Positions 2,313 through 13,416 of a DNA stretch of 64,000 nucleotides are shown here, one piece after another. Origin of the DNA: Candidatus Omnitrophota bacterium (lineage in GTDB: Bacteria > Omnitrophota > Gorgyraeia > B26-G9); assembly GCA_018817165.1 (NCBI GenBank), contig JAHITY010000062.1, positions 26,958 through 90,957 on the forward strand, written 5' to 3'. Below the pieces are notes generated by a model. That model did no database searches and was not told where the DNA came from. It was given only the letters and a program-made list of their open reading frames with translations. Each line of letters starts with the position of its first letter. Within the stretch, counting starts at the first letter, position 1. Made by a program: the position numbers and the translations under genes.

Positions 2313-2341
2313 TTGACAAATGATTGTAGCTCATGTATACT
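2313..2341 (+). promoter_or_regulatory. sigma70-like promoter (TTGACA-17 nt-TATACT) for the minor-pilin operon leader
   Basis: TTGACA at 2313-2318, 17-nt spacer, TATACT at 2336-2341; followed by a perfect 9-bp hairpin GGTAAAAAT/ATTTTTACC at 2360-2381. Confidence 0.45.
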
Positions 2342-2392
2342 TGTATTGTAGGAAAGTACAGGTAAAAATATAATTTTTACCCTTTTATCGAT

Positions 2393-2552
2393 AATGGCAA
2401 ACCCACTGAAAGGTGGGGGCGTTTCTCTGAGATTGCTTACTGGTTAATCCATCAATGAAACTTCGAATGATCTGCTAAATCATATGGGATCAGTCGGAGC
2501 AAAGCTACGGGTCTAATGGTGTTCCTTAATAGACGGCCGGGTTACCGAAATA
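2393..2552 (+). promoter_or_regulatory. c-di-GMP-I (GEMM)-like riboswitch candidate with an atypical ~75-nt insertion
   Basis: Hairpin GGCAAACC-CACU-GAAA-GGUGGG (2396-2418) resembles the GEMM P2 hairpin with GNRA tetraloop. GCAAAGCUACGGGUCUAAUGGUG (2499-2520) and CCGGGUUACCGAAAU (2537-2551) resemble the conserved P3 and 3' P1 segments recalled from the Vibrio Vc2 aptamer. Lies in the 380-nt pilC to minor-pilin spacer. Confidence 0.5.
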
Positions 2553-2577
2553 AAAAGGAAAAGCCAATGATAGCCGA

Positions 2578-2608
2578 GCTACCGAAATAAAAGGTAGGTC
2601 GGTTTTTT
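2578..2608 (+). terminator. Putative intrinsic terminator/expression platform of the leader RNA
   Basis: CTACC-GAAATAAAA-GGTAG hairpin followed by GTCGGTTTTTTGT. The motif ACCGAAATAAAA(A)GG occurs twice (2543-2557 and 2581-2594), compatible with alternative pairing. Confidence 0.4.
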
Positions 2609-2635
2609 GTCTAAAAAAGGGGAGTTGGATAATTT

Positions 2636-3106
2636 ATGCGAAGAAAAAAGGGGTTTACGCTGGTTGAAGTTTTAGTGTCTACATTAATTATGGCAATTGC
2701 GATTACTTCAACTTTACAGATTTTAATTTATTTGCTGCAGATGAATGAAGCCAATCAATCTTCAGTCACTTGTATGAATGAAGTTCAGGGGCGGATGGAT
2801 GCAATAAAAAGTGTGCTTTATGAAGATATTGTGGGTAGTTATAATCGGCTTAATTTTACGTCTGCTGAATTAACCAGTCGCGGAGTTCGGCATAGCGGAA
2901 TAATTTATGCTACTGAAATCCAGCCGCCTTTTCTGATTGATGTTAAAATAGTTGTTTGTTGGGAAAACAAAAATAGAATAATCGGTGAAGATACTAATTT
3001 GAATGGGTTGCTTGATGGCGGAGAAGATACAAATGGTAATGGGATTATTGATTCACCGACAATGATTGAAGGTACAATTTTAAATAGAGCGTATCAGGGG
3101 AGTTGA
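2636..3106 (+). CDS. Minor pilin with prepilin-type N-terminal cleavage/methylation domain
   Basis: N-terminus MRRKKG|FTLVEVLVSTLIMAIAI: class III signal peptide with Gly-1, Phe+1 and Glu+5; 156 aa. Confidence 0.8.
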   Translation: MRRKKGFTLVEVLVSTLIMAIAITSTLQILIYLLQMNEANQSSVTCMNEVQGRMDAIKSVLYEDIVGSYNRLNFTSAELTSRGVRHSGIIYATEIQPPFLIDVKIVVCWENKNRIIGEDTNLNGLLDGGEDTNGNGIIDSPTMIEGTILNRAYQGS

Positions 3107-3109
3107 AAA

Positions 3110-3754
3110 ATGTTGAAGAATAATAATGCTTATACATTGGCTGAACTTTTAGTTTCACTGGCAATTTTCAGTGTGGTTATTGGCTCATTAATGACGATCT
3201 TAATTTCCCAAAATGCTTTTTTTAGTCGGGCTTCAGCATCTGTTGAAGTCGGCGCTAATGCCCGAAAAGTAATGTCTTTGATGGTTAAAGAGCTGCGTTT
3301 GTCTAAAGTAGATCGGGTAGAGGTTTATGATAAAAATGGCAATAAGTATGATAAGGATACGCATCCAGATGGGGCGGATATTTATTTTAAGGTGCCGATA
3401 GATTGTGACAACGACGGAGATAGATTTGATGTGAATGGTAATATCGAATGGGGTTGTGAAGGCGGTTTGGAGTGGTTTATTGAATATTATTTTGACGAAG
3501 CTAATAAAAGAGTTATGCGCCGTTTATTAGACGCGTCTAAAATTGCTCAATCAGAAACTGTGATTGCGAATAATATTAGTGGTTTTTTAATTCAAGGATT
3601 TCATTATAATTTTACAAATAAAATATATGAACCAGATTCTGCGTGCAATGTTCTGCGAATAACGATTACTTCGGAAAGAGATTCTATTTCCGGGCGGATA
3701 TTAGATACTCCTTTGACTTATACTCTAACAAATCAAGTTTCATGGCGCAATTAA
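3110..3754 (+). CDS. Pilin-like protein with non-canonical prepilin leader (no Gly at -1)
   Basis: N-terminus MLKNNNA|YTLAELLVSLAIFSVVIG: a hydrophobic pilin helix with Glu at +5 only if cleavage follows Ala; 214 aa; next gene in the minor-pilin operon. Confidence 0.6.
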   Translation: MLKNNNAYTLAELLVSLAIFSVVIGSLMTILISQNAFFSRASASVEVGANARKVMSLMVKELRLSKVDRVEVYDKNGNKYDKDTHPDGADIYFKVPIDCDNDGDRFDVNGNIEWGCEGGLEWFIEYYFDEANKRVMRRLLDASKIAQSETVIANNISGFLIQGFHYNFTNKIYEPDSACNVLRITITSERDSISGRILDTPLTYTLTNQVSWRN

Positions 3755-3770: not shown

Positions 3771-6548
3771 ATGAAAATAATTATGAATAGAAAAGGAACG
3801 ATTCTTGTCGCGACTTATATGGTCTTATGCGTAATCATTGTTGTTGCCAGCTCTTTTTTTTCCATGGTGCTTACGGATAATAAAGCAGTTACCAGAAGTA
3901 ATGATGGAGCAAGAGCTTTGTCAAACGCGGAAAGAGGTATAGCTTATGCTTATTTTGAAGCCTATAATCTTGGCTGGGATTGGAAAACCCATGATTGGCA
4001 TAATGCTGCGCATAAAGTTGAACTTAAGGTAGTGCCTCCAGGCCAGCAGCTTAAAACCCGGCCGGATTGTGATTTTAATGCTGATGGTTTTTTTGTGCAT
4101 GATTCAGGTGATTTCATGATAAAAGCATATCCTGATATGACTCGGGAAAATGATACTGTAGTTGTTTCCATGGGGATTTGCGGCAAAGAGACTAAAGTAT
4201 TAATGTATTATTTAACCCGCAGGGGAATATATGATTTTTTTCTCTATACTCCGTATAATTTAGATCTTTATGCTGCTGTGGGCAATCATCCTGACTTGAA
4301 TGGCGGCGGGATTCATTCAAATGGCGATATTCATATTGATAGCGCGATGCGCCTTGAGGATATTTCTGAATTAAGTACCGGAGAAACCGGCAGAATTTAT
4401 TATGAAGGCAATCAATATATTCCACCTTATTACGCGGATCGTTTGGATGGAATTATGGATGGAAAATCCCCGATAACTAGGTTGGATAGATTGGGTGATG
4501 TATTTCGCGATGACCTTAAATTAGAAACGGGCCCTTTTGGTTATTATAATGCTTATGGTCAATGGAATTGGGATAGCGGAGCAACTTATTTTGTAAATAC
4601 ATCTATTGGTCTGCAAAATTCTTTTCAAAGCACTGAGGGGCATTTTGCCGGTTCAATATTAGATGTTTATAATGTTGCTCCAGGCAAGACGAATATTGTT
4701 AAAAATGACAGCACGGATACATTAAATTCGCAAAATTGTTGGATAAAACCATATATTCTTGATGCGGATGGTAATAAAGTTGCTACAACTTGGACGGAAA
4801 TCCCTGCGGAAATGGATACGCAATGGGAATGGGATAAATACGGTTGGAATAAATATGGCACAGTTGCCGGAGAACAGCCGGTCAGCTTTTATACCTATAA
4901 AGATGATGGAACTAGTGTGGGGGTTGCGAACACGTATTGGGAAATAAATGCCAGTAATAAAGTTGAAATGCTTGATCCGCCAATCGGCGGGACTCCGGAA
5001 CAGTGGGCGGCTTTTAATGCGGCGCATCCTAGCGCAAAGCAGTATTGGGATATGTATTCTACCCCGGAATTTTGGAATGCAACCTATGGCAATTCATCGC
5101 GTGAATACTATGCAGAGATGATCAATCCTGAAGTGCTTGATGGGACTTATGGGGATGAACGCTTAAATAATGATAGTATAATGGTTAATCATACTGATTC
5201 CTTAAAACAACCGAATGATTGGAAAAGTTTTCTTACTAAGTCAGGCTTAGATAATATCGTAAGAGATGGGAATACCGGCGGTGAGTATCTGTCACCGCCT
5301 GATTTTGATCAAACCTACTCCCGCTTAGCAGCGACTGATGGATTATTGCTCGATTTAGATTCTAGTTTTGATGGTGATTATGATGATTATGCTGAATGGC
5401 AGGCTGTGTTGGAAAAAAGTATTGATGCTGCGGTGGATAATCTGAATAAAGATACTAAACATAATGATGTGGCAAAAAAAGTTAAATTCATTAATACTTT
5501 TACCGGTGAATGGAATGTTGTTTTGGAAATTGATTTTGAGAATATGCAAAAAGAAAGCAAGTATCCGAAGAATGGGATTTTGTACACTCGCGTGCCGGTG
5601 AGAATTACCAATGCGGCCAAACTTGCTAGAGCAAAGCCCAAATACGGATTCACTATTTTAGGCGAAGAAAATGTCTATTTAAAAGGGGATTATAATACGG
5701 ATCAATGGGTAACCAGCGCGATTATTTCCAAAAAACGGATATTTACTTTATCGGATGATTTTAATGATCCCCAGGTTAAGCCGGCTTTGGAGCATTATCC
5801 TGACTATCCTTATATTTATGTTAAAAATGATGGCAGTGATAATTATGCCGAAGTTGCCAAAGGAACTGTGGGCGGACAATGGGTAATATTAGATTATTTG
5901 GATGCTGATGGATCAATTGATAAAATTGATTATTATCCGACAATTGATGATGTCAATGAAGCCAATTTGCGGGCAACAATTCTAAACAAAGAAGCGGATT
6001 ATCGCAGTGTGTTTAATAAGGATGATCCCACTGGTGCAGCAGAATCTACCTGGGTCTGGAGCGGAACCGGAGAAAGCTATACTTCCGGGATGATGCCGAA
6101 TAAAGTGCTAAATGATACAACTTATAATGCTTTGATGGCATCTAATCGCTGGTTAGAGTCGTATCAAAGTAATAAGGGGGATATTCTGGAAAATTGGTAT
6201 TATAATGACGGAACAAAAAATATTTCCAAAAAACGTAATTTAAACGGAGCTTTTTTTGTTTTAGAAAATGCGTCAGCCGGCGGTTTTGCCGCGGCAAATA
6301 ATGAATTTGTTGATTATCGCAATGAATCCGGGCTGGGGTATGATCAAAGAGGCCGTTCCCCGGGAACCGGCGATAATTATTCTTATAATCGGGGTTCTTT
6401 TCTGCGGACTTATGATGCGGCGGAATCTATTTCTTATGATGAACAGTTTAGAACTGCTACCAGAGCGCCTTCAGATGTGTTTTTTGGCGGGGCTGAGTCT
6501 TTATGGGCAGAATCAACAGAAGAGTTTTTCTATCAGATGAAATTTTAA
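3771..6548 (+). CDS. Large PilX-N-terminal-domain protein, candidate PilY1-like pilus tip/adhesin
   Basis: N-terminus MNRKGTILVATYMVLCVIIVVASSFFSMVLTDNK resembles a PilX_N helix. 925 aa, rich in W/Y/D/N/G (beta-rich). Sits in the minor-pilin operon where pilX/pilY1 normally sit. Confidence 0.5.
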   Translation: MKIIMNRKGTILVATYMVLCVIIVVASSFFSMVLTDNKAVTRSNDGARALSNAERGIAYAYFEAYNLGWDWKTHDWHNAAHKVELKVVPPGQQLKTRPDCDFNADGFFVHDSGDFMIKAYPDMTRENDTVVVSMGICGKETKVLMYYLTRRGIYDFFLYTPYNLDLYAAVGNHPDLNGGGIHSNGDIHIDSAMRLEDISELSTGETGRIYYEGNQYIPPYYADRLDGIMDGKSPITRLDRLGDVFRDDLKLETGPFGYYNAYGQWNWDSGATYFVNTSIGLQNSFQSTEGHFAGSILDVYNVAPGKTNIVKNDSTDTLNSQNCWIKPYILDADGNKVATTWTEIPAEMDTQWEWDKYGWNKYGTVAGEQPVSFYTYKDDGTSVGVANTYWEINASNKVEMLDPPIGGTPEQWAAFNAAHPSAKQYWDMYSTPEFWNATYGNSSREYYAEMINPEVLDGTYGDERLNNDSIMVNHTDSLKQPNDWKSFLTKSGLDNIVRDGNTGGEYLSPPDFDQTYSRLAATDGLLLDLDSSFDGDYDDYAEWQAVLEKSIDAAVDNLNKDTKHNDVAKKVKFINTFTGEWNVVLEIDFENMQKESKYPKNGILYTRVPVRITNAAKLARAKPKYGFTILGEENVYLKGDYNTDQWVTSAIISKKRIFTLSDDFNDPQVKPALEHYPDYPYIYVKNDGSDNYAEVAKGTVGGQWVILDYLDADGSIDKIDYYPTIDDVNEANLRATILNKEADYRSVFNKDDPTGAAESTWVWSGTGESYTSGMMPNKVLNDTTYNALMASNRWLESYQSNKGDILENWYYNDGTKNISKKRNLNGAFFVLENASAGGFAAANNEFVDYRNESGLGYDQRGRSPGTGDNYSYNRGSFLRTYDAAESISYDEQFRTATRAPSDVFFGGAESLWAESTEEFFYQMKF

Positions 6549-6582: not shown

Positions 6583-7005
6583 ATGGATATCAAAGTTAAA
6601 ATAACCTTGATCACAACCAGTGTTTTGCTAGTGCTGATTATTAGTACAGGTTTGTACAATACTCTTAATCCAAAAATAAGCTCTATAGTAGAGATTAAGC
6701 CGGTTATTACGCAAAGTTCGCAGAATAATGTGGCGCGGGTAAGACCTAAATTAGGGGAAAAATCAAATTTGCCGCTTAAATTAAATGATTATTATTTTCC
6801 GCAGAGAAATACTGTAAAAGCAAAAGTTGATCCTAATGGGGCTTTAAATCAAGAGGAGCAGGAAGAGGATGCTTTTTTTGAACCAGAGCAGCCGAAGCCT
6901 TTTGATATTATAGCAGACTTTGATGATGATTATGTTCAAGCTCCTGATGCAGCTGGGTCAATGGATTTAAATCCGAGCGGTGATTTGGAACCGCCTGAAG
7001 ATTAA
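6583..7005 (+). CDS. Hypothetical membrane-anchored protein with acidic C-terminus
   Basis: One N-terminal TM (ITLITTSVLLVLIISTGL) and an Asp/Glu-rich tail; no recognisable family. Confidence 0.35.
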   Translation: MDIKVKITLITTSVLLVLIISTGLYNTLNPKISSIVEIKPVITQSSQNNVARVRPKLGEKSNLPLKLNDYYFPQRNTVKAKVDPNGALNQEEQEEDAFFEPEQPKPFDIIADFDDDYVQAPDAAGSMDLNPSGDLEPPED

Positions 7006-7063: not shown

Positions 7064-8350
7064 TTGACTTTTTGTTCTTCCTCTTCTATAATAGGGGCAA
7101 TGCAAGTAGACAGAAATTCAATTTATTCAGTAATTTTTTTCCGATTTGCCATTGCCACAGTGATTTTTATTGTCAATACAACGCTTTTTGGCTTAGGGCG
7201 TATTCCGGTTTATTTTATAATTACCGCTATCTATGGTCTGACAATAATGTATTCCTTGCTGACTTTAGCAAATATCTTTAATCGGAAATTTCTTTATGTT
7301 CAGATTTTTCTTGATTTGATTATGGAAACATTATTGGTTCATTATACCGGAGGGGTTAATTCGGTATTGAGCATTTTGTTTCCCTTGTCGAGTATAGCGG
7401 CGAGTATTATAATTTCTCCGGCAGCGGCAATAATTATTGCTCTTTCAGGTAGTATTATGTATGCGGGCATAGTAACCTTGGAATCTTTGAATATTTTTTC
7501 TGTGCCTGCTCTGGGAGTAAACGCGCTGGTAACTCCCAGCGATTATGTTTTTTCTTTATTGTATTTTAGGGTTACAGTATTTATTGTGATCGGCTTTTTG
7601 AGTTCATACATTGCTGATCAGCTGAGAAAACAAAATAAAGTCGTTCTATCATTACAGGAGAAACTGCGCCGAGAAGACCGTTTGTCGGCTATCGGCAAAC
7701 TTGCGGCAAGTACAGCCCATGAGATCCGTAATCCATTGGCTTCAATATCCGGCTGTGTCGAGGCTTTAAAAGATACGATTTATTTAGAAGCAAAAGATAA
7801 AAAATTGTTTGATCTTATTTTAAAAGAAACAGCGCGTTTAAATGATATTATTAATGGTTTGCTTGAATATGTCAAACCGCGAAAACTTAAACTGGAAAAA
7901 ATATCAGTGGATGAGTTGATTGATGAAGTGGTATTTTTGCTTAAAAGCAGCAAGAAATTCAATCAAAATATAATTATAAAAAAAGAAAACTCTTTGCCTG
8001 AGGTAATGATTAGCTGTGATCCCCAGCAGATAAAGCAGGTTTTGTTTAATCTTTTGATTAATGCTGTGGAAGCCGTTGATAGTCAAGGGAAAATCATAAT
8101 CAAGCAGAATGTTAAGAAAGATATTAAGGGAATTGAATTAGATATAATTGATAATGGAATCGGCATGTCCAAAGAACAATTAGGTACTCTTTTTGAACCA
8201 TTTTCCAGTGGAAAGGATCAGGGGGTTGGTTTGGGGTTGCCGATAGTAAGTACAATTATAAAGGAACATGGCGGAACTATTAATATTCAAAGTGCTTTAG
8301 GTAAAGGGACGACATTTTCTATCTTTTTACCAGAAAAAATAAAGGAATAG
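7064..8350 (+). CDS. pilS: PilS-like sensor histidine kinase (polytopic membrane N-domain, HisKA, HATPase_c)
   Basis: About 6 TM segments; H-box AASTAHEIRNPLASISG; N/G boxes DNGIGMS...GLGLPIV. Probable TTG start at 7064 (ATG at 7100 is an alternative). Confidence 0.8.
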   Translation: MTFCSSSSIIGAMQVDRNSIYSVIFFRFAIATVIFIVNTTLFGLGRIPVYFIITAIYGLTIMYSLLTLANIFNRKFLYVQIFLDLIMETLLVHYTGGVNSVLSILFPLSSIAASIIISPAAAIIIALSGSIMYAGIVTLESLNIFSVPALGVNALVTPSDYVFSLLYFRVTVFIVIGFLSSYIADQLRKQNKVVLSLQEKLRREDRLSAIGKLAASTAHEIRNPLASISGCVEALKDTIYLEAKDKKLFDLILKETARLNDIINGLLEYVKPRKLKLEKISVDELIDEVVFLLKSSKKFNQNIIIKKENSLPEVMISCDPQQIKQVLFNLLINAVEAVDSQGKIIIKQNVKKDIKGIELDIIDNGIGMSKEQLGTLFEPFSSGKDQGVGLGLPIVSTIIKEHGGTINIQSALGKGTTFSIFLPEKIKE

Positions 8351-8351
8351 T

Positions 8352-9704
8352 ATGCAGGCGAGAATACTCTTGGTTGATGATGAAAAAGATCTGCTTGAAT
8401 GGTTGAGCATTGTTTTAGAAAAAGAAGGTTATCAGATTAAATGCGCTACTTCCGGAGAAGAAGCGCTTAAGTTGTTTGCTCAAGAACAGTTTGACATGGT
8501 AATCAGCGATATTCGGATGACTCCGATCAATGGTTTAGACCTGCTTAAAAAACTCAAAGCGATAAACCCGGAAATTATCGTGCTGATGGTTACGGCTTAT
8601 GCTTCTGTTGATACAGCGGTTAAAGCTCTAAGATATGGAGCATATGATTATTTGTTTAAACCGTTTAAACTAGATGATATTAAGCTGATTATAAAGAAGG
8701 CCTTTAGCCAAAGAAGAATTTTCGCGGATGATAAAAACAGTGAGAAGAAATTAAAAGAGCGGTACCGGTTTGCGAATATTATTGGCAAAAGCGCTCCGAT
8801 GCAGAAAATATTTGATATGATTGATAAAATTGCCAAGACCAATACAACAGTTTTAATTAATGGAGAGAGCGGTACAGGAAAAGAGCTTATTGCCAAAGCG
8901 ATTCATTATAATAGTTTAAAATCGAATAAACCTTTTGTTTCGATAGATTGCGGTGCCTTGCCGGAAGAACTTTTGGAAAGTGAATTGTTTGGGCATGTAA
9001 AAGGTTCTTTTACCGGAGCTATTTCCAGCAAACAGGGATTATTTGAAGTTGCCAGCGGAGGCACATTGTTTTTAGATGAAATTGGTGAAACCTCACAGGC
9101 GATGCAGGCTAAAATGCTGCGAGCGCTTCAGGAACGGGAAATCAGAGCTGTGGGCGCGACTAAAACCATAAAAGTCGATGTCCGGGTGATTGCCGCGACA
9201 AATAGAAATTTAGAAGATGAAGTGCGCCGAGAAAATTTTCGCAAGGATCTTTTTTATCGAATAAGTGTTATTAGTTTGGGTCTCCCTAAATTAGCGCAGC
9301 GTAGAGAAGATATTGGCTTGTTGGTAAATCATTTTCTGAAAAAATATCAATTAGCCGGAAAATCAGTTAAATCAATATCCAAAGAATGCATGGATTTATT
9401 TATTCAATACTCCTGGCCTGGTAATGTTCGCGAGCTGGAGAATGCGATTGAAAGCGCGGTGGCGCTTTCTGAGTCTAATGAAATCAAAGTCAATGATCTG
9501 CCCGAGCGAATCCAGGATCAATCCTCCTCAGCCGAATCGGAAGTAGTTACAAGCGATTCTTTAAAAGGTAAGGTTGAGCAGTTTGAGAAAGAACTTATTG
9601 CTAAAACCTTAAAAGAAGTGGGTGGGAACAAAAATCTGGTGGCTAAAATCCTTAAGATGACTCGGCGCAATCTGGATTATAAAATTAAGCGCTATGAGAT
9701 ATGA
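8352..9704 (+). CDS. pilR: Sigma-54-dependent response regulator (NtrC/PilR family)
   Basis: REC domain (LLVDDE...D), AAA+ sigma-54 activator domain (GESGTGKE, GSFTGA variant of GAFTGA), C-terminal Fis-type HTH. Starts 2 nt after pilS. Confidence 0.9.
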   Translation: MQARILLVDDEKDLLEWLSIVLEKEGYQIKCATSGEEALKLFAQEQFDMVISDIRMTPINGLDLLKKLKAINPEIIVLMVTAYASVDTAVKALRYGAYDYLFKPFKLDDIKLIIKKAFSQRRIFADDKNSEKKLKERYRFANIIGKSAPMQKIFDMIDKIAKTNTTVLINGESGTGKELIAKAIHYNSLKSNKPFVSIDCGALPEELLESELFGHVKGSFTGAISSKQGLFEVASGGTLFLDEIGETSQAMQAKMLRALQEREIRAVGATKTIKVDVRVIAATNRNLEDEVRRENFRKDLFYRISVISLGLPKLAQRREDIGLLVNHFLKKYQLAGKSVKSISKECMDLFIQYSWPGNVRELENAIESAVALSESNEIKVNDLPERIQDQSSSAESEVVTSDSLKGKVEQFEKELIAKTLKEVGGNKNLVAKILKMTRRNLDYKIKRYEI

Positions 9705-12144: not shown

Positions 12145-13416
12145 ATGGACAAAGTGATAACTTTATTGCCATTTATCAGCATTTTATTTTTAATTGTTTT
12201 TTGGGTTTTTAGTCCGAATATGGGGGCGGCTCTATTAACAATTACTATTCCTTTTGTTATTTTTGCCGTTTATTCTAATTTAAAAAGAAAAGAATTACTC
12301 TCGGAATTAAGGGATACTGTTAAATCTTTTCAAGCGGAAAAAGAAGAAATTATAAAAGAAATTCAGAAAAAAGAAAAAAAACAAAGAGCGCAAAATGAAG
12401 AATTAAGACAGTTTGGAAAAAGTCTTTCCACGGCAATTAATAAAGATCAGCTTTTGCGTTTAATTGTAAAAAATTTCAGCAAGGTTACTGAATCTAAAGA
12501 AGGCGAAAGCCAATGTTTTCTTTTAAGCCGGCAGCAAGGGACAGATGAGTTTATTTACGAAGCCGGACATAATTTTGACAGCAATACCTTGAAATCAATG
12601 AGGTTTAGTGAGAATGATGAAATTATTCAGGCAGTAGTAAAAAGCAAAAAAATCAATACTTTTATTAGTGATATATTTGGCGGAGATTCAAATATTAGAT
12701 ATTTTCTTAAAGAGGAACGGACAACTTATTTATCGCAATTAGGATCACTGGCGCTTATCCCTTTAATAATGGAAGAGGAAGTGTGGGGAATTATTGTAAT
12801 TTTTTGCCGAGAAGGGGCTGCGGCTAATATAAAAAATGATGAAGCTTTTTTTCGGCTTTTGGTCGCGCAGGCTTCAATTGCTTTAGGTAGCGCGATTCAT
12901 CGCGGTCTTGCTTCGATCGATAAACTAACTCAGTTGTATAATCGTACTTTTTTGCAAAAACGAATGAATGAAGAAGTCGAATTTTGTAATCGGCAGCTTC
13001 TGCCTTTAAGTTTGTTGATGCTGGATATTGATCATTTTAAATTAATTAATGATACTTATGGGCATCAAGAAGGCGATATGGTGCTTAAAAAAATAGCGCA
13101 GATTATCAGTAAAAGTGTGAGATTAACTGATATTTGCGCGCGTTATGGCGGAGAAGAATTTGTTATTGTTTTACCGGGAATTGAGGAAATCGCGAACGAT
13201 AAATTTTCTATAGCTGAAAAATTAAGGCAGGCTGTTGAAAGTTCTGATTTTGTTGTGCTGGGTGATAAGCATATAAAAGTTACTATTAGTATTGGGGTTA
13301 CTGTAGGCAGATATCCTGAGGATAAAGACTTAGGGATGGACGCGTTTATCCAAAAAGCGGATCTATTGCTCTATAAAGCAAAAGAAGCTGGTAGAAATAG
13401 GGTGTGTTATAGTTAA
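12145..13416 (+). CDS. Membrane-anchored GAF-GGDEF diguanylate cyclase
   Basis: Two N-terminal TM helices, a coiled-coil, a GAF-like middle domain, and a C-terminal GGDEF domain with an intact active site RYGGEEFVIVLPG. A sigma70-like promoter TTGACA-17-TAAATT sits at about 11868-11896. Confidence 0.85.
   Translation: MDKVITLLPFISILFLIVFWVFSPNMGAALLTITIPFVIFAVYSNLKRKELLSELRDTVKSFQAEKEEIIKEIQKKEKKQRAQNEELRQFGKSLSTAINKDQLLRLIVKNFSKVTESKEGESQCFLLSRQQGTDEFIYEAGHNFDSNTLKSMRFSENDEIIQAVVKSKKINTFISDIFGGDSNIRYFLKEERTTYLSQLGSLALIPLIMEEEVWGIIVIFCREGAAANIKNDEAFFRLLVAQASIALGSAIHRGLASIDKLTQLYNRTFLQKRMNEEVEFCNRQLLPLSLLMLDIDHFKLINDTYGHQEGDMVLKKIAQIISKSVRLTDICARYGGEEFVIVLPGIEEIANDKFSIAEKLRQAVESSDFVVLGDKHIKVTISIGVTVGRYPEDKDLGMDAFIQKADLLLYKAKEAGRNRVCYS

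Follow-up and report, generated by a model that had tools for sequence, protein, structure and literature searches.

The class I cyclic di-guanosine monophosphate (c-di-GMP) riboswitch, or GEMM-I element (Rfam c-di-GMP-I, RF01051), is among the best-studied riboswitch folds, and its first hairpin has been described as nearly invariant. As described, this hairpin consists of 2- and 6-bp stems around a 3-nt internal loop (variable-length, no modular stems; PMC1950547). Here we report a c-di-GMP-I riboswitch in the leader of a minor-pilin operon, located in a 64,000-nt stretch of contig JAHITY010000062.1 from a Candidatus Omnitrophota bacterium (this whole stretch is called the window, and coordinates without a locus name refer to it), in which two additional hairpins, termed HA and HB, interrupt the first hairpin of the aptamer. 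We consider it probable that the c-di-GMP-I aptamer at 2381–2558 carries HA/HB as a static part, competes with a decoy strand and, at high c-di-GMP, turns off the minor-pilin operon.

The window copy shares with the Vc2 aptamer of Vibrio cholerae (RF01051) the bases and helices G20, the 2-bp P2a, the AAA junction with A47, the GNRA-capped P2b, the bases of the C44–G83 pair, a receptor-like loop in P3, C92 and P1, and it has the same placement in the 5′ untranslated region (UTR), before pilus and surface genes, as other members of the c-di-GMP-I type. It differs from this type in the two hairpins (78 nt) added between C44 and G45, which create a four-way junction. As a consequence of these hairpins, the family model scores the variant marginally and misses or mis-aligns approximately half of the copies. 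In regards to switching, the closest described system is Cd1 in the flgB leader of Clostridioides difficile, an experimentally characterised OFF switch in which the ligand-bound aptamer permits a terminator, the ligand-free RNA forms a transient antiterminator, and the control is kinetic (PMC9262584). The window leader appears to follow the same strand logic. In contrast to Cd1, its antiterminator would be formed by the 5′ strand of P3 and a second strand further downstream, which nearly repeats the 3′ strand of P3 and also serves as the 5′ half of the terminator; the window leader also contains HA/HB and precedes pilus rather than flagellar genes.

The GEMM-Ib riboswitches of Geobacter, such as the pilM riboswitch, which respond to 3′,3′-cyclic GMP-AMP (cGAMP), resemble the window copy in their homologous aptamer fold and their location in type IV pilus leaders. 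They possess A20 and act as ON switches with a terminator overlapping the aptamer, whereas the window copy possesses G20, HA/HB and, according to the modelled folds, a decoy-based OFF platform. Tandem GEMM-I elements, described as two or three complete aptamers in series (PMC4759541; PMC1950547), likewise bring extra RNA structure into a leader, as in Bc3–5 of Bacillus thuringiensis and one third of the deltaproteobacterial GEMMs, and are a possible source of HA/HB. Unlike in these tandems, the core motifs occur in the window as one set, and HA and HB lie within the aptamer itself. Neither a GEMM-I element with an extra stem or a four-way junction nor a c-di-GMP riboswitch from Omnitrophota was found described in the open-access literature; mentions of the HA/HB variant may exist in closed-access papers or curated alignments.

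The c-di-GMP-I Aptamer in the Minor-Pilin Leader

A cmscan search of the whole window gave a single match at the gathering threshold, c-di-GMP-I (RF01051) at 2386–2549, with a score of 37.7 bits against a gathering threshold of 35 bits and an E-value of 8.7e-4 (whole 64-kb window, 4227 families). The alignment to the model left an 81-nt unaligned insertion. When 2250–2700 was compared with all of Rfam, the other RNA families gave noise alone at E ≤ 10, and the c-di-GMP-II model, which the original prediction had named for comparison, gave no match in that range. The chance expectation of the 18-nt core motif was 0.07 per window; each core motif occurred once, and no further GEMM-I copies were found within the 64 kb. 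The 5′-UTR placement typical of RF01051 was also observed, with a promoter upstream, a terminator downstream and minor-pilin genes next.

The complete aptamer domain is located on the forward strand at 2381–2558, where P1 (2381–2390 with 2546–2558) encloses G20, P2a, P2b, HA, HB and P3. The GNRA-capped hairpin and the two conserved segments on which the original prediction was based were found at 2396–2417, 2499–2514 and 2539–2548: GGCAAACC (2396–2403) starts the GAAA-capped hairpin, GCAAAGCUACGGGUCU occupies 2499–2514, and GGGUUACCGA occupies 2539–2548. Alignment to the Rfam consensus (...UgCCgaa at the 3′ side) places the equivalent of G20 at 2396 and that of C92 at 2545. P2a comprises 2 bp, formed by G21–C22 (2397–2398) with G45–C46 (2499–2500), and P2b is the hairpin CCCACU-GAAA-GGUGGG at 2402–2417, capped by a GNRA tetraloop. 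The GGC linker (2418–2420) follows, in which C2420 is equivalent to C44, the partner of G83 (G2536). The segment 2499–2502 supplies G45–C46 and the equivalent of A47 (2501) in the AAA junction. P3 (2503–2543) pairs 2503–2513 with 2532–2543 and contains an internal loop that resembles a receptor, a GG:CC stem at its apex and a bulge of two G (2535–2536), of which G2536 is equivalent to G83. The receptor region (UCUAAUGG / CCUUAAUAGAC) fits the Rfam consensus approximately only; C2420 and the bulged G2536 are present.

Conservation was examined in a register-based, trimmed alignment of 22 copies and in the orthologous leaders described below. The GC/GC pairs of P2a were unchanged in all 22 sequences. 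In P2b, 100% of the cells were paired, and five of the six pairs changed on both sides; RNAalifold found this helix independently, and the orthologues contained the variants CCCACU/GGUGGG, CCCGUU/AGCGGG and CUCUGC/GCAGAG. This covariation identifies the local GAAA hairpin as the true P2b, rather than the long-range helix proposed by Infernal. The latter, which pairs CCCACU with AGUCGG across 81 nt with one mismatch, was dropped in favour of the perfectly paired and covarying local hairpin. The linker was G-R-C with an invariant C in all insertion-type copies, the GCAAAGC segment was unchanged in all copies, and the G of the P3 bulge was invariant. P3 cells were paired at 100% in the orthologues and 94% across the class; for P1 the value in the orthologues was 93%, which reflects conservation rather than covariation. 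A47 and C92 were kept in 22 of 22 aligned copies and G20 in 19 of 22.

G20 and C92 recognise the two guanines of c-di-GMP, C92 being the Watson-Crick partner of the second (PMC6140456), and the inter-helical C44–G83 pair is essential for binding (PMC11705072). The presence of G20, A47, C92, C44, G83 and the GNRA loop indicates that the window copy bears the signature of a c-di-GMP aptamer and not that of a cGAMP aptamer. Judged by the model score and the conserved bases, the leader is a genuine class-I c-di-GMP riboswitch, as the original prediction had proposed: P2 and P3 form and covary, and neither of the outcomes named beforehand as unfavourable, the lack of a covariance-model match and the inability of P2 and P3 to form, was observed (37.7 versus 35 bits).

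A Two-Hairpin Domain Inserted into P2

The insertion comprises 78 nt (2421–2498) and lies exactly between C44 and G45. An insertion of about 75 nt had been predicted between the P2-like and P3-like parts; the insertion itself was confirmed, whereas its place proved to be inside the P2 internal loop. Folded on its own, as had also been suggested, the segment gave two hairpins rather than one, and these used all of its nucleotides. HA (2421–2461, 41 nt) is closed by the base GUUUC/GAAAC, and HB (2462–2498, 37 nt) by UUCGA/UCGGA; HB adjoins both HA and G45 with zero linker nucleotides. The P2 internal loop (AAA / GRC) becomes in this way a four-way junction of P2a, P2b, HA and HB. In the described hairpin architecture nothing stands between C44 and G45, and the window copy departs from it; because the two hairpins break this architecture, we classed the copy as a variant rather than a typical member. 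The suggestion of a tandem or partial aptamer did not hold: the aptamer of the leader is single and complete, and the insertion, which lacks the core motifs in the window, is a conserved domain of two hairpins.

We compared the folds of insertions with those of 4600 dinucleotide shuffles. Two abutting hairpins spanning the full insertion (strict definition) were obtained for 20 of 23 insertions and for 0.26% of the shuffles; with a looser two-hairpin definition, the values were 23 of 23 and 1.3%. An energy-free split-point test gave 24 of 31 real sequences versus 3.0% of shuffles at k=4 and 18 of 31 versus 0.29% at k=5. In the 22-sequence alignment, all 12 basal pairs of HA/HB (six in HA) changed on both sides, the covariation score was 0.514 versus 0.213 in shuffles (reached by 0 of 500), and 93% of the cells were paired versus 31–47% with slid partners. 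Furthermore, eight more metagenome sequences, found after the rule was set, all folded into two hairpins. The insertions ranged from 64 to 89 nt and were unrelated in sequence among copies, paralogues included, with the two-hairpin fold kept.

HA and HB formed in every modelled state, which marks them as a static accessory of the sensor that takes no part in switching. The best reading of these results is that HA/HB would be an accessory structural domain that organises or stabilises the junction beside the binding pocket. A mobile or repeated element was rejected: no second copy of the insertion was found in the window at up to 3 mismatches, and the insertion sequences of paralogues were unrelated. 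A distant search of a plasmid collection gave no match to the leader.

Occurrence and Origin of the Variant

We compared nine loci with homologues of the minor pilin (54–83% protein identity); these and further loci are designated by L numbers. Each of the nine carried the c-di-GMP-I element ahead of its orthologous minor-pilin gene, and the promoter hexamers, the aptamer core and the terminator were almost invariant in their alignment. Eight of the nine contained the insertion. The most distant locus, L009, had the canonical junction, in which GGC directly adjoins GCAAAGC, and scored 74.6 bits; its promoter, aptamer core and platform were the same, without the insertion. Five of the eight insertion-bearing leaders were reported under RF01051 at 36.2–38.8 bits, and L001, L007 and L008 were reported only under the c-di-GMP-I-GGC model at 33–34 bits versus a threshold of 59 bits. 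In L005 (2702–2953) and L006 (1419–1670), automatic annotation had placed an 83-aa gene over the riboswitch, which is almost certainly spurious.

A pattern scan for a GEMM core split by 80–110 nt, covering one genome per species (GTDB), returned 19 loci. Sixteen of them shared one layout: GGCAAAC, P2b with a GNRA loop, G-R-C, the insertion and GCAAAGC. Almost all were in metagenome-assembled genomes (MAGs) of Omnitrophota, with 3–4 copies per genome, and three carried a Planctomycet label (as given). We found 31 distinct sequences with the HA/HB architecture, mostly from Omnitrophota and several per genome. At the gathering threshold, approximately half of the divergent copies were full-length Rfam matches spanning the insertion; Rfam missed L012, L014, L016:3538 and L021:2097 and mis-aligned four others, in which HA or HB stood in for a helix of the model. 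The pattern scans, one of them of metagenomes, also returned as false positives ordinary aptamers preceded by a chance GCAAAC, namely L013, L015, L018, L032, L033, L037–L039, L041, L042, L045, L049, L050, L052, L054 and L055. L047:2355–2485 (minus strand, metagenome) was a true tandem of two GEMM-I aptamers and not of the insertion type, which means that the search pattern catches tandems too.

Both forms coexist in one genome, as L021 contains a canonical, uninterrupted c-di-GMP-I aptamer (6785–6864, 59.5 bits) on the same contig as its insertion-type copy (2084–2251). L016 contains an insertion-type pair 3.7 kb apart (3525–3693 and 7220–7384), each heading its own minor-pilin operon, and the two copies are near-identical in sequence except at position 20, which is A in one and G in the other. 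A cobalamin riboswitch (69 bits) at L022:151–475, on an Omnitrophota contig that also carries an insertion-type copy, is unrelated to the GEMM finding.

HA/HB might be a functionless passenger, namely the relic of fused tandem GEMM-I aptamers or of an old insertion, whose folding is kept to spare the aptamer. Consistent with this idea, L009 has the same platform without an insertion, no conserved loop sequence was found in HA/HB across the copies, and tandem GEMM arrangements are common (PMC1950547), with one real tandem (L047) found here. Moreover, the 5′ half plus HA of L026 aligns as a degenerate whole aptamer, and HB of L017 (CCUGGCAAAAC...GCCAGG) aligns as a degenerate P2. Such likeness to aptamer halves is, however, weak and limited to few copies. 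The two-hairpin, zero-linker form has outlasted complete sequence turnover, in many paralogues per genome and in distant Omnitrophota, and a useless insert of 64–89 nt beside the pocket should often vanish, whereas a single loss or absence was seen among the orthologues. We therefore regard a passenger as a serious but lesser possibility, roughly a one-in-four prospect, and favour a maintained accessory domain.

The insertion may derive from a fused tandem aptamer pair. Rfam gave partial whole-model matches at L026:3039–3121 (minus strand), with HA as a degenerate P3, and at L017:3346–3429 (minus strand), with HB as a degenerate P2. HB often opens with CYGGC(A/G)AA, which resembles GGCAAAC (L012, L017, L022, L023, L027, L030 and L021).

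Expression Platform and Switching Direction

The aptamer is followed by an intrinsic terminator on the forward strand (2574–2608), with the stem 2574–2583 / 2593–2602 (CCGAGCUACC / GGUAGGUCGG), the loop GAAAUAAAA and U6 at 2603–2608. This corresponds to the predicted hairpin plus U-tract (2574–2602, then U6); a simple terminator scanner missed it on account of the 9-nt loop. The 3′ strand of a putative antiterminator lies at 2555–2580 and pairs with 2503–2527; it consists of a linker (2555–2566) complementary to the apex of P3 and a decoy, GAUAGCCGAGCU (2569–2580). The sequence GAUAGCCGAGCUACC (2569–2583), which covers the terminator's 5′ half together with the bases that precede it, is a near-copy of the P3 3′ strand GACGGCCGGGUUACC (2532–2546).

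The minimum free energy (MFE) structure of the ligand-free RNA at transcript ends 2584 and 2592 was the antiterminator (2503–2527 with 2555–2580), at −62.3 and −63.4 kcal/mol, respectively, versus −48.4 kcal/mol with the aptamer enforced. In the orthologues, the antiterminator was 91% paired, versus 29–52% with slid partners, and the aptamer-plus-terminator fold was 93% paired. The antiterminator was the ligand-free MFE structure in 20 of 21 copies, the exception being L017. G2578 faces 2598 as a G·G mismatch in the terminator of eight of nine orthologues and forms the antiterminator pair G2578–C2505 in all nine, which indicates that the antiterminator places a constraint on the decoy sequence. 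Decoys of this kind are a general feature, since the 5′ half of the terminator reads GCCGAG[CU]U in unrelated copies as well. The proximal strand always carries C92 and the CGA of the P1 strand, which the decoy lacks in L012, L024 and L026; the proximal aptamer was therefore taken as the ligand-binding form. An antiterminator made of the P3 3′ strand and the 3′ half of the terminator was set aside for the window, where the decoy-based helix is the modelled MFE structure; L017, which lacks a decoy, does have this pairing.

In the proposed mechanism, without c-di-GMP the 5′ strand and apex of P3 would pair with the linker and decoy (2503–2527 with 2555–2580), and this antiterminator would allow read-through into the pilin genes. 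Binding of c-di-GMP would lock the aptamer and free the decoy to pair with 2593–2602, so that the terminator would form. High c-di-GMP would thus switch the minor-pilin operon off. From the ligand-free antiterminator in 20 of the 21 modelled copies we infer that c-di-GMP causes termination, and an OFF switch is the most likely direction.

Several points weigh against the interpretation as a whole. The RF01051 score is just 2.7 bits over the threshold, and Infernal puts the insertion in the P2 loop, unlike the covariation-based placement. Covariation is weak in P1, P3, the terminator and the antiterminator, where the segments are nearly invariant. With a plain MAFFT alignment of full sequences, RNAalifold finds P2 and P3 and misses HA/HB, as the unrelated inserts do not align by sequence; the support for HA/HB comes from per-sequence folds, shuffle controls and a trimmed alignment whose boundary was taken from those folds. 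Many of the 31 sequences are closely related and represent perhaps ~15 independent lineages by our estimate. In regards to the platform, the thermodynamic MFE structure of the full-length leader includes the terminator regardless, so that the model depends on kinetic, co-transcriptional control, and nearest-neighbour energies leave out tertiary contacts and ligand binding. Finally, the decoy of the window subfamily also bears ACCGAAAUAAAAGG, and an alternative aptamer built on the decoy could stabilise read-through, which is the opposite logic.

This last point leads to the same riboswitch with ON or mixed logic, in which a complete alternative aptamer on the decoy would bind c-di-GMP, sequester the 5′ half of the terminator and raise pilin expression. 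In the window subfamily, the decoy region 2569–2594 repeats C92 and the 3′ strands of both P3 and P1; its sequence is GAUAGCCGAGCUACCGAAAUAAAAGG, compared with GACGGCCGGGUUACCGAAAUAAAAAGG in the proximal strand, and the decoy is the closer of the two to the Rfam consensus uAuGacAGCc. Infernal pairs P3 with the distal strand in L030, and ON designs occur in the same genomes, as in L017, whose terminator overlaps the P3 3′ strand directly. In addition, c-di-GMP often activates type IV pili in other bacteria. Against ON logic, the proximal aptamer is completed ~45 nt before the decoy is transcribed, so the ligand can capture the proximal form first; the decoy architecture is kept in L012, L024 and L026 even though their decoys lack C92 and the P1 strand; and the alternative aptamer would require a P3 loop of ~55 nt. 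ON or mixed control of the window operon is, on this evidence, rather unlikely, with about one chance in five, and we retain the OFF model.

L017:3344–3500 (minus strand) itself is an insertion-type copy without a decoy. In this copy the terminator, GGUAGUCCGG with a U-tract, forms its pairs with the 3′ strand of P3 itself, a classical ON design that was described in 2007 (PMC1950547). It precedes a C25 peptidase with dockerin domains and is from the same MAG (JBDRCZ) as the OFF-type L012, L022 and L023.

Possible Effects of HA/HB on the Sensor

Beyond the static accessory domain favoured above, the four-way-junction form could be a functionally distinct GEMM-I subclass, in which HA/HB packs on the pocket or on P3 and changes the sensor. 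This idea, which could cover changed affinity, kinetics or selectivity, a second input, or a fused tandem acting as a single composite sensor, is offered tentatively and is, in our estimate, unlikely. If it were true, the Omnitrophota pilus and surface-protein regulon would operate on a riboswitch architecture not seen elsewhere.

The narrower proposal that HA/HB is a second input site, for a protein or a small molecule, or a changer of specificity, so that the leader is a two-input or re-targeted sensor, appears improbable. The domain stands one nucleotide from C44 and adjoins the pocket, its architecture is strongly conserved, HB frequently opens with CYGGC(A/G)AA and contains loops rich in A, and three copies have A at position 20. 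Nevertheless, the domain contains no conserved motif of the kind usual for binding sites, the leader matches no further Rfam family, each base that contacts c-di-GMP is kept, and the regulon is classic for c-di-GMP.

Ligand and Regulon

The ligand of the window riboswitch is presumed to be c-di-GMP, on the basis of the bases described above and of the genes that follow related copies. Among the products encoded behind other insertion-type copies are pilins, a PilB ATPase that contains an MshEN domain, PilZ proteins, a GAF-HD_5 protein, a dockerin-bearing C25 peptidase, dockerin surface proteins and very large secreted proteins. These genes constitute a typical c-di-GMP regulon, which supports c-di-GMP as the ligand.

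PilB-type ATPases encoded beside the riboswitches in L001 (1–1304), L003, L008, L009 and L011 (upstream) have an MshEN N-terminal domain, and at L021:2343–4067 the gene for the MshEN ATPase itself stands behind an insertion-type riboswitch. The MshEN domain family includes high-affinity c-di-GMP receptors. The GAF plus HD_5 protein behind an insertion-type riboswitch at L019:5820–7040 may be an HD-GYP-type c-di-GMP phosphodiesterase; if so, the ligand level would be under feedback control.

Position 20 is A in three of the insertion-type copies: L003:2748–2916 (A at ~2760), L016:3525–3693 (L016:3538) and L021:2084–2251 (L021:2097). L003 is a direct orthologue of the window leader with little other difference, and these three copies may bind cGAMP or both ligands. 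That the window copy itself is a cGAMP-sensing GEMM-Ib riboswitch, as the original prediction had also considered, is very unlikely. The GEMM-Ib control of pilM operons in Geobacter (PMC9262584) and the A20 copies in L003, L016 and L021 lend some plausibility to such an assignment; GEMM-Ib is, however, defined by A20, and the window has G20 (2396). With the wild-type G20, cGAMP is disfavoured by orders of magnitude (PMC6140456). A predicted GGDEF enzyme is, moreover, encoded in the same cluster. Equally remote is a dead riboswitch in which the insertion has inactivated the aptamer and left a constitutive attenuator, as the low Rfam score and an insertion beside residues whose mutation abolishes binding could suggest, since the pocket and tertiary bases, the P2 covariation and the aptamer/antiterminator logic are kept in 31 divergent copies before c-di-GMP-type genes, whereas a dead aptamer would decay.

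Promoter, Leader and Pilus Locus

The riboswitch occupies a 379-nt spacer on the forward strand between the gene for a T2SSF/PilC protein (1048–2256) and the minor-pilin gene (2636–3106), and no open reading frame of at least 50 aa overlaps this spacer on either strand. The predicted sigma-70-type promoter was found at 2313–2341, with the −35 hexamer TTGACA (2313–2318), a 17-nt spacer and the −10 hexamer TATACT (2336–2341). The hexamers agree with the consensus at 11 of 12 positions, and both are kept in all nine orthologous leaders. Transcription is predicted to start near 2348–2350. A 5′ leader hairpin, GGUAAAAAU-AUA-AUUUUUACC (2362–2380), adjoins P1 directly and was present in all modelled folds; in the orthologue alignment, 74% of its cells were paired, with two-sided changes in five of eight pairs. 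It lies at the predicted 5′ end of the transcript, with compensatory changes in L007 and L008, and could stack on P1 or shield the 5′ end.

A ribosome-binding site, AAAGGGGAG (2617–2624), precedes the first regulated gene, the minor pilin (ATG at 2636, end at 3106). It is followed by a second pilin-like gene and the genes of a 925-aa protein and a 140-aa protein, and the gene order of the operon is the same in the orthologous loci. Prepilin N-methylation motifs are encoded in the genes that follow the leader. The minor pilin is 100% identical to a protein from a 'Candidatus Omnitrophica' MAG, which agrees with an origin in an uncultivated Omnitrophota bacterium. The 925-aa protein (3771–6548) stands after two pilin-like genes in all related loci and has a PilX-like hydrophobic N-terminus (MKIIMNRKGTILVATYMVLCVIIVVASSFF); it gave no match in Pfam, NCBIfam or PDB, and the PilY1-like label it had been given is accordingly not supported by these collections.

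Further along the window, the pilus cluster contains a PilS-like histidine kinase with a sigma-54 PilR-type regulator (7064–9704), three more pilins, a GAF-GGDEF diguanylate cyclase (12145–13416) and pilMNOPQ. The co-occurrence of a GGDEF enzyme with type IV pilus genes had been pointed out from the first reading of the locus and was borne out. The locus may thus join protein-level and RNA-level control by c-di-GMP.

Biological Significance

The recurrent GEMM-I form with HA/HB appears to be a new structural variant, that is, one specific and evolutionarily maintained departure from the described hairpin. A structured domain of 64–89 nt, one nucleotide from the essential C44–G83 contact, is recurrent in nature. 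L009, which lacks the insertion, provides a natural comparison for the effects of a peripheral domain on affinity, folding kinetics and switching. RF01051 detects the variant marginally and mis-aligns it, and c-di-GMP regulons in Omnitrophota and their relatives are for this reason probably under-annotated.

Omnitrophota are uncultivated, very small bacteria that are suspected to live attached to, or prey on, other cells. Our results point to direct RNA-level control by c-di-GMP of the type IV pilus minor pilins in these bacteria. Such control is also indicated for other pilins, a PilB-type ATPase, large secreted proteins, and PilZ and GAF-HD_5 proteins, and the modelled folds suggest that ON-type and OFF-type platforms are both used within a single genome.

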